Of a DNA stretch of 64,000 nt, positions 47,782 to 55,012 are shown in pieces (position 1 is the stretch's first letter; each line of letters begins with the position of its first letter). The notes under the pieces were generated by a model that worked only from the letters and a program-made list of their open reading frames with translations, made no database searches and was not told the DNA's origin. The translations under genes and the position numbers were made by a program. Source of the stretch: Alphaproteobacteria bacterium (lineage in GTDB: Bacteria > Pseudomonadota > Alphaproteobacteria > MPNO01 > UBA830); contig OZ219791.1 of the NCBI GenBank assembly GCA_964291215.2, positions 2,688,001 through 2,752,000 of the forward strand, given 5' to 3'.

Positions 47782-49281
47782 CAATTTTGCTGTCTTCTGC
47801 TGTTCGGAGGTTTCACGGCGTGCCGGGTTTTCGGGGCCGTCCGCGGTCGTCGCCGACGGCGTTGCCGGCGCGTGGGCGGGTTGTGGGCGGCGTCCGGGAA
47901 TCGGCCAGACGCTATTGGCGCTCAGGGCTGCGACGGCTTCCCGGCGGTCGAGCCGCCGCCGTGTTTCGGCGAGGCTCTCGCGTCGGTTGGCGAAGATCAC
48001 CGCGAGCGCGAGGTCGTCGAGGCTGGCGTGGTTTGCGGGTCAGGCAGGCGTCCTCGCCGAAGACGCAGTCTCGGTGGTTCATGTTTTCCACGGCCCGCGG
48101 CCGCAGCAGTTCCTCTGGCGACGCGTGTTGCGCATCGAGCTGATGCACCGGTACAGTCGTTGCCGCTCGCTGCGCCGCTGGCGCTCTTTCCCGGCGGCTT
48201 GCGGTAGCATGCGGGCGATCTGCCGGGGTAGTTGATCAGGTCCTCGAGCGGCACGCGCTGCTCGAGGCGGGCCTTGCCTCCTTGAAGCGGCCATCCGTCT
48301 CCCGGTCGATGCCGTCGAAGGTTTCGGGCGCCCTTGACCGAGAAGATGTGGTCTGCGCCGCAGCGCCGGGTGATCAGCGTCGCCGGCGTCGTGCGGGTGA
48401 TCACCTTGCCGCGGACATCGGTGCGCTCGAGGAGGTGGCCGCCAGCTCACCGTCGTCGAAGTTCAACAGCGCGAAGGGTGCGCCGGAGGCGTGAGGGCCA
48501 CGGTCTCGTGGTGGCCGTTGCGGTTGGCGCCGCGGATGCGCTTGCCGTCGGCGGCAAGCGCTCGGGCGAGCCCGCGGCCGAGCACATCCTCGAGCGCCTC
48601 GGGGTCGATTGACTGCCCGGTGGAGGGTCGCCCCGGAGGGCGGCTCGCGCAGCTCTGTCCTCGGGTTCCGCCGATGACCTCGAGCTCGTCCCGGGACAGC
48701 GACCGCGCAAACTGCGCAGCTGCCTTTCATGCGCGGCGGAAGTCCTCGATCGCCGCCAGCTCGTCGTGCAGCGAACGCATCACCTCGGAACCCCGGGGAG
48801 CGAGGAGGCAGGCCACCGCAGCGCCTGCGACAGCAGCCGTCGCGCCGCACAACGAAAATCTCCTTGCCATGGGGGTCGGTGCAGCGCCCGCGGGCAAACC
48901 CCCTGGCACGCCAGCCCGCCGCCTTGTGCCCGCAAAACGCGCCGGATCGCAGAACGTCTCCGCCACCTGGTGGCCGCAGGCCCAGTCGTCGGCCAGCCGC
49001 CGCGTCGCAAGAAAGAAGAAGGCGAGGTTCGGAAACGCTCCCGGCGCCGCAAGCAGTCGCGTGTTGTCAGATCAAGCCACTGCTGCTCCGGCTTCCAGCC
49101 ACCGGTCGCGGCACTTGAAGGCCCCGTCACGCCGCCAAACCACTGCTCCTGAAGGACGCAATATGGCGCAGCCCCGTCAGACGGCGAAACCCGAGATAGT
49201 CGTCCATCAACGCATCCCGCAGCGGACGCTCCTCAGGGCTCTTCTTTTGTCATGTTTTTGAAAAAATAACGATTTTATATC

Positions 49282-49974
49282 GTAACTGCTTACCGCTGCT
49301 GGTCATGGATTGCCGTTCCTGACGGCGTTCGGGGTCAAGCATCTTTTCTCGTCCCCTTCCCTCGCTGATTGCCGGAAACCGGAGGTGCGGGTTCCGATGG
49401 GCAAGAACCGTTCCGGTCTTCGGCCGGTCTTGCTTTCCGGCCGGTGTCGCCGGGTCTGCAATGCGGTACCGAGCCCGCGGTGCGGGTTCCATCGTGCCGG
49501 CTGAGGAATCCGGCGGTGCAGCTTCAGATATCCTGGCCTCTGGAGAATTGGCAGGCAAGGCCCTCCGGCGGCCGTTCAGGCGGGCTTCGGAGGCAGTTCG
49601 TAGATCATGCGGAGCTCGGTTCCGAGAACGCAGGTGCCGGTTTCATTGAGTTCCTTCAGCAGTCCTGCGATGGCGGCGTTGCAGGCGGATCCGGGGATGC
49701 GCACCCGGAGGATCCCCGGTTCAGGTTCGGGGAGGATGTCGGCGTCGGCCTGCAGGAGGGTGCGGAGGGGTTTTCGCGGGCGCGGTTTCCTGCCCTGCTC
49801 CTTCGCCAGGGCCGCCATCGTCCGGGTTTCGGCGCGGTAGGCGATCATGCGCAGGATGTCGAGCCGGTGCTTCTCCCGGAACGGAAGAGCATCGAGGGCC
49901 GGATCGGCGGCGAGTTCCCGGATGCGAACGCCGTCAGGAAAGGCGGCCAATGATCAGCAGGGGCAAGCAGTTAC
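49282..49974 (-). mobile_element. 693-bp non-autonomous element carrying a transposase C-terminal fragment
   Basis: TIRs GTAACTGCTTACC / GTAACTGCTTGCC; 8-bp TSD TTTATATC at 49274-49281 and 49975-49982; ORF fragment D.LRMIAYRAET...ELNET...GTELRMIY. Confidence 0.8.
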
Positions 49975-50362
49975 TTTATATCAATGATTTGAAGTTAAAT
50001 TACCTGATGTGTCTTCATGTCGAGATCAGATGTTTCCGACCCCGTTTGTCCACTTGTGAAGGCCGTGGTGCAACCATTTCGTCAATGTTCCCTATTTGTT
50101 TTATGAAGCCGTAGAACTGTCGGGCTTGCGCAGGAGATCAGGGAACGCGGCGTCCGGCCACGCCATCGGCGGGTAGGGCAAGGGGAGACGCAAACGATCT
50201 TTCCGCGCTCAAGGTAACGGCGCTGGCGCACGACGACATGGCAGCGCTGCACCACGGGATGCGCGGCAAGCCCCGACCCGGACAACCGCCAAGTGTATGT
50301 CCACCTCGCCGACGATCCGCAGCATGGCGCTTCCGGGCGAACCACCGCGTCCCTCAAGCAGG

Positions 50363-51208
50363 TCATGGGCCGTAGCGCGAGCGCCGGTTTCCTCCACCCG
50401 CGCTTCGCGCCTCCCGATCACCCCCGGCCAGGCCGCGCAGCACGAACTCGCGCCAGCCGCCGTCGGCAAGCGCCTCTGCCTTCGGGACCCAGCGCCGCAC
50501 CTGCGAGCGCATCCAGCTGTCGGAGGTCCATGTCGCTGCCACATCCTCCTCGCCCCAGATGTCTTCCGCGATCCCGCGCGCCGTCTTGCCGGCCCCGAGC
50601 CCGGCCAGCACCGTCACCAGCCTGTCGATCTCGCGAACCGTGCCTCCCGACCCTGCCCGTTCCGAGGGACCGGAAGACCCGCCACGTTCCAGAAGTCGAG
50701 AAGGCGCCGGACCGACAGCGGCATTCGCAGCCCGAACGGATGCCTGATCGAAATGCCGCCGTCGCCGGGGAACCGCGCCGCGTTCCCGAGGTCGATCCGG
50801 ACCGCCGCGCCGCCATGTTTGATCTTGAGCACCAGACCGCCGCCGAGCAGGCGCAGCCCCTCGACCGCGCCTCCCATCAGCCCGAGCAGCGGCTCCGGCA
50901 CGCCCTCCGGCATCCCGTCCTGACGCCAGAAGGGCGAGGCGGGGCTGTCCGCCTTCCAGGGGTCTTCCCAGGCGAGCATCTCGAACCGCTCCGCCGCCAG
51001 GTCGGCCTTCGTCTGGATAGGGAAGGAGCCGGGTTCCGGCGCGCCGGCGGCGTGCCGGCGCCAGGCTTCCTCGTATTCGACGACCTTGCCTGAGAACCTT
51101 CCAGGCAAGGACGCCGTTCCCGGTCTCCGTCACGGATGCCGCCCCTTGTCGGTGCCGCGACACCAGGCGGGAGCCCGCAACGCATTCGGTTTCGTTTCCG
51201 GCGGTCAT
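50363..51208 (-). pseudogene. FseA-like transcriptional activator (DUF6499 + DUF2285) spread over two frames
   Basis: LAWKVLR then KVVEYEEAW (DUF6499 AWEFLRRNPDY...W spacing), LAWEDP..SPFW, then C-terminal GKTARGIAEDIWG..V...W.SDSWMRSQVRR.V.KA.AL.DGGWR. Confidence 0.65.
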
Positions 51209-51679
51209 GTTGCGGTCTCCCGCATGGACTTCCCGGACCGGATGCCGGCTGGCGCGGCCGCCCTCCTCGCCGCCTCAACCGCTGTATGCCTGTTCACCAG
51301 GGCGCCCTCCCGGAATCGAGTAATCCACTTGATGCCCACTATGCGTCGGCTGGCTCGACCCGGCCAATTGCCGCCCGCGATGCGGGAAATCAGCCGAATG
51401 CGGCATGGAGTCCTTCCACTACCGCGCGCTATGCGCATCTGGCGCAAGGCCCGGTGCGCGGGTCCGCCGTCTGCGTCTCCGACAGCATTGCTGCCGATAT
51501 CCTCGGGGACTACCGCCCGTCATGACGGCTCTGGCATATCCCCGCCACAGGCTCCGGCGATTGCGGAGCCGATGTTGCCCGGTGTAGGGTGCCGCCATGC
51601 CGAATGTCGACCCTCTTCCGGCCCGCAAGCAGGATGTCCGTCGGGAGCCTCCCGGAGACGATGCCGGAGGTCTTTCCCG

Positions 51680-52685
51680 GTGAGCCTTCCGGCGACGCCG
51701 CACGATGCGCTGTTCCGGGCGCTGGTCTCCGAGCCGGCCCGCGCCGCTTCGCTGCTCGCGGAATACCTGCCACCCGAGGTGGCAGCCCTCCTCGACCCCG
51801 AGGCCCCGCCCGAGGCGGTCGAGGGCAGCTTCGTCGACGAGAACGCCGCGCGGACCCAGTGCGACGCGCTCTTCCGGGTCAGGCTGAGGAGCGGCCACGA
51901 GGCGCGCCTCTATGTGTTGCTCGAACACAAGAGCCGCGTCGATGCTGACACGCCACTCCAGCTCCTGAAATACATGGTCAACATCTGGCGCCGCGAGATC
52001 GAGAATGGCGGTGCCGGGGACAGGTTGCCGACGATCATCCCGCTGGTCTTCTACCATGGCCGGGGCCGCTGGACGGCGCCGCTCTCGGTGCCGGGGATGA
52101 TAGACGCGCCCGGGGAGTTGGAGCCGTTCGTCAGGGAGTTTGCCTATGTGGTGCACGACCTTGGCGAGATTGCGCCAGACCGGCTGTCGGCCTCACCCGA
52201 GGTGCGTTCTGGCGCTCAGGGTCGTTCATGCCGAGGAGATACCGCCCGATCTTCTGGACGAGATGACGGGCGGGCCAGTTGCGGGGAGCGCGTTCGAGCG
52301 TCATATTGTGCGCTACATTGCCGAGCGCATGAACCTGACGCCGCCTTTGCTGGAGGCGTCGCTGCGCCGGACGAAGCCGGATCGCTGGGAGGCGCTGATG
52401 GGAACGGTCGCGCAAGCCTGGATCGAACAGGGAAGAGCTGAAGGAATCGAGAAGGGAATCGAGAAGGGAATCGAACGGGGCCGGAGCGAGGGCCGGGAGG
52501 AAGGTCGCGCGGAGGGCCAGGCTGGAATTGTTCTTCGTCTTCTGGAGTTGCGCTTCGGTGATGTGCCGGATGCGGTTCGCGAGCGGGTTCGCAACGCGTC
52601 GGCCGCCGAACTGGAGGCTTGGGCGGAGGCGGTGCTGATGGCTGCGAGCCTCGATGAGGTGCTGGCCGTCAAGCCCGGGCGCTGA
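51680..52685 (+). pseudogene. Rpn/YhgA-like PD-(D/E)XK nuclease copy 1, frameshifted at about 52210
   Basis: GTG start with GGAGG RBS; PHDALFR, GSFVD, QCDALF, LLEHKS, LP.IIPLVFYHG...W; C-terminal (E/Q)G repeats and DUF4351-like tail in another frame. Confidence 0.85.
52398..52685 (+). CDS. Internal RpnS-type small ORF (putative antitoxin) copy 1
   Basis: GGAGG-cgctg-ATG; MGTVAQAWIEQGRAEGIEKG... intact to the stop. Confidence 0.6.
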   Translation: MGTVAQAWIEQGRAEGIEKGIEKGIERGRSEGREEGRAEGQAGIVLRLLELRFGDVPDAVRERVRNASAAELEAWAEAVLMAASLDEVLAVKPGR

Positions 52686-53299
52686 ACCGGCGCAGTATTG
52701 GCCGACCTTGCCTGAGAACCTTCCAGGCAAGGACGCCGTCCCCGGTCTCCGTCATGGATGCCGCCCCTCGCCGGCGCCGCGACACCACGCGGGAGGCCGA
52801 GCCCGCCGCGCGGGCGGTTTCTCGTTTTGGGCGGTCATGTTGCGATCTCCCGCATGGACTTCCCGGACCGGATGCCGGCCGGCGCGACCGCCCTCATCGC
52901 CGCCTCAACCCCTGTATGCCTGCCCGCCATGGCGCCCTCCCGGAATTGAGCGTTCCACTTGATGCCCGCTGTGCACCCGTTGGCTCGATCCGGCCAATTG
53001 CCGCCCGCGATGCGGGAAATCAGCCGAATGCGGCATGGAGTCCTTCCACTACCGCGCGCTATGCGCATCTGGCGCAAGGCCCGGTGCGCGGGTCCGCCGT
53101 CTGCGTCTCCGACAGCATTGCTGCCGATATCCTCGGGGACTACCGCCCGTCATGACGGCTCTGGCATATCCCCGCCACAGGCTCCGGCGATTGCGGAGCC
53201 GATGTTGCCCGGTGTAGGGTGCCGCCATGCCGCCCCTCTTCCAGTCCGTGAGCGGGCTGTCCTTCGGGAGCCTCCCGGAAACGCCGGGGAACCTTCCCG

Positions 53300-54281
53300 G
53301 TGAGCCTTCCGGCGACGCCGCACGATGCGTTGTTCCGCGCGCTGGTCTCCGAGCCGACCCGCGCCGCTTCGCTGCTCGCGCAATACCTGCCGCCGGAGGT
53401 GGCCGCCCTCCTCGACCCCGAGGCCCCGCCCGAGGCGGTTGAGGGCAGTTTCGTCGACGAGGACGCCGCGCGGACCCAGTGCGACGCGCTCTTCCGGGTC
53501 AGGCTGAGGAGCGGCCACGAGGCGCGCCTCTATGTGCTGCTCGAACACAAGAGCCGCGTCGACGCCGACACGCCACTCCAGCTCCTGAAATACATGGTCA
53601 ACATCTGGCGTCGCGAGATCGAGAATGGCAGCGCCGGGGACAGGCTGCCGGCGATCATCCCGCTGGTCTTCTACCACGGCCGGGGCCGCTGGACGGCGGC
53701 GCGTTCGGTGCCGGGGATGATTGATGCGCCCGAAGAGTTGGAGCCGTTCGTCAGGGAGTTTGCCTATGTGGTGCACGACCTTGGCGAGATTGCGCCAGAC
53801 CGGCTGTCGGCCTCGCCCGAGGTGCGTTCTGGCGCTCAGGGTCGTTCATGCCGAGGAGATACCGCCCGATCTTCTGGATGAGATGACGGGCGGGCCGGTT
53901 GCGGGGAGCGCGTTCGAGCGTCATATTGTGCGCTACATTGCCGAGCGCATGAACCTGATGCCGCCTTTGCTGGAGGCGTCGCTGCGCCGGACGAAGCCGG
54001 ATCGCCGGGAGGCGCTGATGGGCACGGTCGCGCAAGCCTGGATCGAACAGGGAAGAGCCGAGGGAATCGAGAAGGGAATCGAACAGGGGATCGAACGAGG
54101 TCGGAGCGAGGGCGAAGCCGGAATCGTTCTTCGTCTCCTGGAACTGCGCTTCGGGGCTGTGCCGGATGCGGTCCGCGAGCGGGTCTGTCGTGCGTTACCA
54201 ACCGAACTGGAGGCTTGGGCGGAGGCGGTGTTGGTGGCTGCGAGTCTTGATGAGGTGTTGGCCGCCAGACCCGGGCGCTGA
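53300..54281 (+). pseudogene. Rpn/YhgA-like nuclease copy 2, same frameshift at about 53830
   Basis: Same motifs as copy 1; identical ggtgcgttctggcgctcagg junction. Confidence 0.85.
54018..54281 (+). CDS. Internal RpnS-type small ORF copy 2
   Basis: GGAGG-cgctg-ATG; two fewer 4-residue repeats and a diverged tail relative to copy 1. Confidence 0.6.
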   Translation: MGTVAQAWIEQGRAEGIEKGIEQGIERGRSEGEAGIVLRLLELRFGAVPDAVRERVCRALPTELEAWAEAVLVAASLDEVLAARPGR

Positions 54282-54557
54282 ACCGGCGCAGCATTGGCCG
54301 ACCTTGCCTGAGAACCTTCCAGGCAAGGACGCTGTCCCCGGTCTTCGTCACGGAGGCCGCCCCTTGCCGACACCGGGACGGAGGCCGAGCCCGCCGCGCG
54401 GGCGGTTTCGTTTCCGGCGGTCATGTTGCGATCTCCCGCATGGACTCCCCGGACCGGATGCCGGCCAGCGCGACCGCCCTCATCGCCGTGTCAACTGCTG
54501 TATACCTGCCCGCCATGATGCCCTCCCGGAATCGAGCGTTCCACTTGATTCCCACTA

Positions 54558-55012
54558 AGGCAGCTGTTGGCGAAGACTGCGACTTGGCGAGCGGCACGAT
54601 CTATGTGCTGCGCAGCAAGTCCAATGATCCTGTTATCGCGCAGCATCGCGACGTGTTGCACAAGATCGGGGTGACGGGCGGCGACGTGAAAACGCGGATC
54701 GCCAATGCCAAGCTCGACCCGACCTTCCTGCTGGCCGATGTGGAGATCATCGCCACCTACAAGCTAGCCAATATCAACCGGACGAAGCTCGAAAACCTCA
54801 TCCATCGCGTCTTCGACCCGGCACGGCTCGACATCGAGATCAAGGATCGTTTCGGAAATCCTGTGATCCCGCGCGAATGGTTCCTTGTCCCGCTGTTCGT
54901 CATCGACGAGGCGGTCGAGCGGATCAAGAACGGCGCGATCACTGAGTACAGTTACGATCCGGCAGCGGCACGCTTGGCTCGTCATGAGGGAAGGACGAAG
55001 GCACAGCCATGA
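54558..55012 (+). pseudogene. GIY-YIG/T5orf172-like nuclease, C-terminal part only
   Basis: SGTIYVLRS, LHKIGVT, RIANA, KLENLIHRVF, PREWFLVPL; the 5' end is replaced by the third repeat leader. Confidence 0.75.

Follow-up and report, generated by a model that had tools for sequence, protein, structure and literature searches.

Positions 51073-54557 of the stretch of DNA analysed here (the window: 64,000 nucleotides of Alphaproteobacteria bacterium, GenBank assembly GCA_964291215.2, contig OZ219791.1, positions 2,688,001 to 2,752,000 of the forward strand) hold two tandemly arranged rpn genes, each with a predicted nuclease toxin, RpnL, and, within the same gene, an internal frame for the antitoxin RpnS. 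Both genes lack the same 8 bp between the nuclease part and the remainder of the gene, and both keep an open RpnS frame. Here we consider whether the array is a relic of duplication in a recombining gene family or a set of maintained antitoxins.

Results

Organisation of the rpn array

Comparison of repeats within the window bore out the A-B-A-B-A structure that a first-pass annotation had assigned to this region. Unit 1 (51073-52694) and unit 2 (52695-54290) each begin with an A repeat, followed by a B unit made of a leader and an Rpn gene, and a third A repeat closes the array. Units 1 and 2 agree at 90.4% of 1630 aligned columns; for A3 the identity is 84.6% across 267 columns. A1 (51073-51345) comprises the first 9-12 codons of a flanking fseA-like gene together with its upstream region; A2 lies at 52695-52975 and A3 at 54291-54557, none of the three being assigned a strand.

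Every A copy contains a perfect 9-bp hairpin, CCTTGCCTG-N9-CAGGCAAGG, at 51084-51110, 52706-52732 and 54302-54328, respectively; the A1 hairpin folds with -26 kcal/mol (z = -6.6). Read on the minus strand, the hairpin at 51084-51110 spans the TTG start of the flanking fseA-like open reading frame (ORF), and it is broken up in the C1_2420k paralogue. A terminator-like stem is found in A2 (52801-52815, followed by a T-rich run) and in A3 (54389-54403). Pfam matched neither the minus-strand ORF of the A repeat nor the N part of the fseA-like gene, a tblastn search with the A-repeat peptide found no full-length paralogue, and a promoter scan of 50900-54700 returned 0 sigma-70-like sites.

Both unit junctions read TGAACCGGCGCAG(T/C)ATTGGC followed directly by CGACCTTGCC, the same join of rpn stop and A repeat occurring twice. 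This identity suggests that a single founding junction was later multiplied by unequal crossing-over, and it fits the earlier suggestion that the array grew by recombination between A repeats.

Both rpn genes carry the same 8-bp deletion

In each unit a PF04754 nuclease domain is followed by a PF14261/DUF4351 tail that lies in the next frame. The nuclease part of unit 1 (PD-(D/E)XK, YhgA-like; 51680-52206, plus strand) matches PF04754 with E = 8.5e-43 over profile positions 1-165 of 203. It belongs to a plus-strand ORF at 51086-52441 that continues out of register past the deletion to a stop at 52441, while the middle region and DUF4351 tail occupy the downstream frame (52207-52685, plus strand; PF14261, E = 7.4e-11). 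In unit 2 the nuclease part (53300-53826, plus strand; PF04754, E = 9.5e-43) lies in an ORF at 53300-53881, and the downstream frame runs from 53827 to 54281 on the plus strand (PF14261, E = 1.1e-7).

The frame changes at the same breakpoint in both units, where GAGGTGCG abuts TTCTGGCGCTC (52206/52207 and 53826/53827), and in this respect the shared frameshift described at first pass stands. Its proposed cause, loss of one copy of a TTCTGGC repeat, does not. Seven intact paralogues in the same genome read GAGGTGCGGGCCGGGCTTCTGG in a single open frame, and the lesion is therefore an 8-bp deletion of GGCCGGGC, as seen on the plus strand when the 12 site-spanning copies are aligned. Because the deleted GGCCGGGC is neither the unit of a repeat tract nor a homopolymer, slippage would be unable to restore the frame, which removes the basis for the slippage-switchable toxin that had been envisaged. 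One continuous RpnL frame is present in the seven paralogues and missing from both window genes, and the deletion is likely to abolish the full-length RpnL nuclease.

Copies of the gene were sought by blastn and profile search across the 6.15-Mb genome, which is assembled in two contigs (C1 and C2). blastn found 15 copies or fragments of one Rpn subfamily; genome-wide there are 12 matches to PF04754 and 12 to PF14261, all of this subfamily, which with a 244-nucleotide (nt) fragment give the 15 places. The seven intact copies, single ORFs with both domains, are C1_548k, C1_870k, C2_682k, C2_1795k and the three genes of a second tandem array (G000:C2:1147762-1151976; L046:6763-11113). Units of that array share 96-98% identity; the periods, 1545 and 1557 nt, lie 12 nt, or one repeat unit, apart, and the RpnS frames encode 94, 98 and 82 amino acids (aa). 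A DruA-like fragment lies directly 3' of this second array. GGCCGGGC is missing from five of the 12 site-spanning copies, namely both window units, C1_2346k, C1_2493k and C2_3153k; the other seven have the 8 bp. Three of the five deleted copies are damaged further: C1_2346k carries another frameshift, C1_2493k breaks off 24 aa past the site and C2_3153k is the 244-nt fragment.

The nuclease frame is open in both units and keeps D62, E82 and K84 (QCD-ALFRV ... LLEHKS), as do all 10 copies aligned; we take these residues to be the counterparts of the catalytic residues of RpnA. Such preservation would suit a functional split or frame-recoded toxin, in which a 176-aa nuclease fragment and a downstream product act as two chains or ribosomes recover the frame. 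However, no slippery sequence or stop was found at the deletion site in either unit, and the out-of-frame tails are unequal, with 77 codons to 52441 in unit 1 versus 17 to 53881 in unit 2. Moreover, the PF04754 match ends at profile position 165 of 203 in both window genes, compared to position 181 in intact paralogues. The further degradation of three deleted copies, and the fact that none of six frame-broken relatives in other genomes breaks at this site, also speak against the split toxin raised at first pass, which we consider very improbable. Programmed frameshifting or slippage was likewise rejected, since the site offers no suitable sequence and three deleted copies are degraded further.

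The repetitive nature of the region and the identity of the leader between units could also have produced an assembly artefact, whether through collapse or mis-joining of a repeat or through a sequencing error where the frame changes. Against this, the units are easily told apart because about 10% of their positions differ, and the deletion is also found at four other loci. Parts of the array occur in four metagenome runs of one study, which may be the assembly's own source. Their contigs show 0 differences across the fseA/A1, rpn2/A3 and A3/T5orf172 junctions and the unit-2 deletion site, the latter covered by contig X2 record 12 (53767-53856) and the A3/T5orf172 junction by X2 record 16. Loose contig ends at 53827 have the intact 8 bp, as paralogues would give. 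On this evidence an artefact is hardly credible.

Probable sequence exchange among rpn copies

The first-pass annotation had stressed diverged copies broken in an identical manner, a pattern that might be read as a sign of selection. The two units were compared with the other copies along their length. Over 51305-51838, unit 1 matches C1_2419k at 99-100% identity, and over 51898-52200 it matches C1_2493k at the same level. For unit 2 the closest copy shifts from C2_1795k to C1_870k, C1_2346k and C1_548k, and, in the tail, to C1_870k (93%). This mosaic identity points to recombination or gene conversion between copies. Between the units, the leader is 100% identical in 120-nt windows starting at 51365, 51425 and 51478.

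Where the nuclease halves of the units differ in amino acids, the variants also turn up in intact copies; unit 2 and C1_548k, for instance, share NGSAGDRLPAII and TAARSV...PEELEP. In C1_2346k the deletion sits on another flanking haplotype. A single clade of deleted copies was recovered in neither of the segment trees, appearing in 0% of bootstrap trees for the nuclease segment. Since the variation between the units is common to intact paralogues, the family has been recombining and not all of the variation arose after the deletion, and the argument from divergence to selection falls away. Diverged copies with an identical break are what a recombining multigene family would be expected to produce.

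Exchange of this kind might itself serve a purpose if the broken copies were silent donor cassettes, feeding repeat arrays and tails by conversion into intact, expressed loci and so diversifying their specificity. The mosaic identity among copies would agree with this, as would the distinct repeat array in each complete C-terminal domain and the QAGIVLRLLELRFG tail type, which is common to the broken window copies and the intact C1_870k. Mosaicism is expected in any multi-copy family, however, and no transfer from a broken to an intact copy was identified among these genes; we judge a donor role to be improbable.

Internal RpnS frames

The candidate internal start sequences and the intact, diversified C-terminal ORFs noted at first pass were confirmed in both units. 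GGAGG-N5-ATG is found at 52388-52400 and 54008-54020, with candidate ATG codons at 52398 and 54018. The predicted RpnS of unit 1 (52398-52685, plus strand; GGAGG at 52388-52392) has 95 aa and seven 4-aa repeats (52434-52517), and that of unit 2 (54018-54281, plus strand) has 87 aa and five repeats (54054-54113). These repeats (GIEK, GRxE, RAEG; 12-bp units) start at RpnS residue 13. Both ORFs are open, could remain translatable and differ in repeat number and tail sequence. The internal Met and MGTVAQAWIEQG are kept in all 40 distinct family sequences collected, and the repeat array is different in every copy with a complete C-terminal domain. At 54185-54203, unit 2 has about nine clustered substitutions that alter five consecutive residues of the RpnS tail, from RGASA to CRALP, and hit two nearly invariant positions.

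An AlphaFold model of the 95-aa RpnS (predicted local distance difference test score 83.7) consists of a long helix at residues 2-53 and three short helices. RpnA-S (PDB 7TH0) is a dimer whose long first helix is part of a small helical bundle. A Foldseek search of the Protein Data Bank (PDB) with this model gave no match at E <= 0.001, RpnA-S (7TH0) included, and sequence searches of the PDB, phmmer among them, found no match for RpnS.

An antitoxin-only role of the window RpnS is possible. Selected orphan antitoxins of this type would be made from an internal promoter and start, and would neutralise incoming Rpn toxins of mobile elements or phages or tune the resident paralogues. Several features of the locus are in keeping with such a role. 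Both units, and C1_2346k as well, retain an open RpnS frame with its GGAGG-N5-ATG, and conserved RpnS columns barely deviate (0/31 in unit 1 and 2/31 in unit 2). In 37 intact family members, synonymous variation falls to roughly half the average for the gene over codons 96-115 and 211-234, corresponding to about 51965-52024 and 52302-52373 in the window; the second dip lies just 5' of the internal start. Stand-alone RpnS genes are known in E. coli, as the article text of Zhong et al. describes (PMC10400941), and C-terminal-only copies adjoin full genes in loci L063, L070 and L074 of other genomes.

Other observations weigh against selected orphan antitoxins. In the E. coli systems covered in the article text, repeat number sets specificity and a mismatch of one repeat abolishes neutralisation (PMC10400941). 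The RpnS frames of the seven intact copies encode 111, 83, 99, 94, 98, 82 and 99 aa, none of which equals 95 or 87. Given this mismatch with all seven, the window RpnS would be predicted to neutralise no resident RpnL if the one-repeat rule of E. coli applies.

Nor did a comparison of the gene halves favour the antitoxin. Deviations were counted at columns at least 90% conserved in the 37 intact family members. Unit 1 deviates at 1/101 nuclease, 0/36 middle and 0/31 RpnS columns; unit 2 deviates at 1/101 nuclease, 2/36 middle (T223M, W239R) and 2/31 RpnS columns (R311C, S314L, both at nearly invariant positions). Counts for intact paralogues are of similar size to those of the two window units. 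Because the nuclease half is preserved as well as the RpnS half, there is no antitoxin-specific signal of selection. Taken together, we consider selected orphan antitoxins an unlikely explanation, albeit one that keeps some weight. A further scenario seems quite doubtful, in which the deletion is a selected 'toxin off, antitoxin on' allele spread by conversion and the resulting bank of orphan RpnS and silent repeat cassettes blunts incoming Rpn toxins and supplies the seven live loci with new specificities.

Relatives in other genomes

No close rpn relative was found in the four other genomes of the genus. The subfamily occurs at 60-91% amino-acid identity, usually in several copies, in metagenome-assembled genome (MAG) records (loci L049-L095) that are labelled Binatia (12 or more loci in one), Alphaproteobacteria, Rhodospirillales/Defluviicoccus, Gammaproteobacteria and Longimicrobiales. 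The presence of the same Rpn subfamily under labels of several phyla suggests wide horizontal spread, a shared habitat or label errors. Six of these 47 loci have a frame change inside the gene, none of them at residues 176-179. In Pseudomonadales MAG records (L096-L110, e.g. OY762279.1:493771-522409) DUF4351/RpnS-like matches limited to the C-terminal part occur in clusters, and the matched loci contain no nuclease part.

Flanking genes and mobility

As the first-pass annotation had stated, the array adjoins an fseA-like gene on its left and a truncated nuclease gene on its right. The fseA-like gene (50363-51108, minus strand) is in two frames, an N part at 50614-51108 and a C part at 50363-50680 with a RovC_DNA-bd/DUF2285 domain (PF10074 on 50366-50680, E = 1.9e-9). 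Three paralogues (C2:1797290-1797905, C1:548017-548636 and C1:2420472-2421055) are likewise in two frames at a G-rich tract, which in the window lies at 50614-50690 on the minus strand. The length of this tract varies among the four paralogues (GGGAGG, GGGGGG, GGGGGGGG). Joining the frames of the window gene needs a -1/+2 shift, and either a programmed shift or a defect is possible; the shift in Mesorhizobium FseA is presumably +1, unlike that needed here. Beside the fseA-like gene, 56-nt inverted repeats at 49276-49331 and 49925-49980 (82% complementary) flank a 124-aa C-terminal fragment of Transposase_29 (49576-49950, minus strand), and the segment 49276-49980 looks like the remnant of an insertion element.

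On the right lies the 3' part of a GIY-YIG/T5orf172 nuclease gene (54558-55012, plus strand; PF10544, PF13455), 5'-truncated such that only the C-terminal ~145 aa remain. Its closest annotated homologue, with 76% identity, has 396 aa and aligns at its C-terminal part only, and no useful homologue was found in 25 other genomes of the same family.

Comparison with full-length integrase paralogues in the same genome identified an integrase remnant in the leaders. In unit 1 (leader 51346-51679, plus strand), the final 36 codons (...STTARYAHL...SIAADIL...) of a tyrosine recombinase gene occupy 51418-51525, and this stretch is repeated at 53048-53155 in the leader of unit 2 (52976-53299, plus strand). 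The rpn gene therefore sits where most of an integrase gene has been lost. A (positions 70-273) and the leader are also found upstream of rpn at C1_548k, C2_1795k and C1_2419k, contiguous with fseA-like paralogues. This contiguity indicates that the repeated entity is a larger block derived from an integrative and conjugative element (ICE), comprising the fseA-like gene, A, the integrase remnant and rpn.

The first-pass annotation had also raised mobility of the A/Rpn unit. Homology between copies stops at, or about 10 nt from, the stop codon, and the flanks differ. Copy ends vary and there are no terminal repeats, in contrast to the defined ends, terminal repeats and target-site duplication expected of a discrete mobile unit, and A plus Rpn recurs only within the larger block that includes the fseA-like gene. 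No circular-form joints were present in the contigs of the metagenome runs, from which rare forms could escape. A mobile or circular A/Rpn unit was rejected on these grounds.

Discussion

As regards the toxin, both window genes are most probably pseudogenes, and they are likely to be ordinary inactivated paralogues. We put at about 0.6 the probability that the array is a 1.6-kb tandem duplication in which both rpn genes carry the 8-bp deletion and are dead as toxins, and in which the RpnS frames are leftovers rather than a selected immunity array. The duplicated segment would consist of the upstream region of the fseA-like gene, the integrase remnant and the rpn gene. A first, illegitimate duplication would have joined a point just past the rpn stop to a point 9-12 codons into the fseA-like gene, and unequal crossing-over between A repeats would then have added one unit. 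Unequal crossing-over after a founding duplication is the mechanism proposed for rpn arrays in the article text of Zhong et al. (2023, PMC10400941). Exchange among paralogues, by recombination or gene conversion, may have spread the null allele, mixed in polymorphisms of intact copies and homogenised the leader. The window copies would thus have lost the toxin while belonging to an rpn toxin-antitoxin (antiphage) family that has expanded and recombines, and any RpnS products still made from them would be leftovers too.

Several observations sit uneasily with inactivated, unselected copies. The null allele is frequent, being carried by five of 12 copies, and all three deleted copies that reach the 3' end have an open RpnS frame with a Shine-Dalgarno sequence and ATG. 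The dip in synonymous variation at codons 211-234 would fit an embedded promoter that keeps RpnS expressed, and such a promoter has been described in E. coli rpn genes. In an approximately unbiased test on the nuclease segment, a single clade of deleted copies was not rejected (p = 0.079). Apart from the deletion, both halves of the genes look healthy. Private substitutions in the nuclease half number five synonymous to three non-synonymous in three deleted copies, compared to 7:4 in six intact copies (C2_682k omitted). The 5:3 ratio exceeds the synonymous share under neutral decay, although it rests on very few substitutions, which conversion from unsampled copies could have brought in. As the counts are both too small and confounded by conversion, they were not weighed as a test of selection. 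As the toxin half has not decayed relative to the antitoxin half, either the deletion arose recently or every part of the gene is refreshed by conversion.

The locus shows turnover of an rpn family within one genome, in which copies are duplicated in tandem, exchange sequence, pass on a null allele and each have a different 4-aa repeat array. It also carries a caution, in that identically broken yet diverged copies in a multi-copy family need not signal selection. If it is true that the RpnS frames are expressed and act on non-cognate toxins, stand-alone RpnS would be extended to anti-toxin immunity. A full-text literature search found nothing on shared null alleles or orphan-RpnS arrays, and the words 'pseudogene' and 'frameshift' are absent from PMC10400941, its supplements aside.

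The closest parallel for the pattern of exchange is with multigene families homogenised by gene conversion, which likewise have mosaic identity, a lesion on several backgrounds and identical tracts in diverged units; any direction or function of the exchange here would be putative. As for the genes themselves, their general features (many copies, arrays, stand-alone RpnS and specificity set by repeats) were already described in 2023 in the article text of PMC10400941. The RpnL/RpnS systems of E. coli and other bacteria treated there share with the window genes the combination of PF04754 and DUF4351 and the internal Shine-Dalgarno sequence and ATG. In those systems, where KGIE-type units occur, the repeats begin 8-20 residues into RpnS (Zhong et al. 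2023, PMC10400941), and the GIEK/KGIE-type 4-aa repeats of the window start 12 residues after the internal Met. Multi-copy rpn genes, arrays that arose by direct tandem duplication, and ends that vary are likewise described in the article text (Zhong et al. 2023, PMC10400941), and the window family is also multi-copy, with tandem arrays and variable ends that lack terminal repeats. Unlike the systems of that text, the window genes share an 8-bp deletion with three paralogues, lie in an ICE-derived block and are known from sequence alone.

A second comparison is with stand-alone RpnS genes (rpnSs, for example ypaA, which lies downstream of rpnE, and other DUF4351 proteins). The window RpnS differs from them in that its frame still lies inside an rpn gene that is frameshifted but nearly complete, instead of forming a small gene of its own, and in having no adjacent intact rpn of matching repeat number. 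What the two have in common is that RpnS could be made without a working RpnL at the locus.

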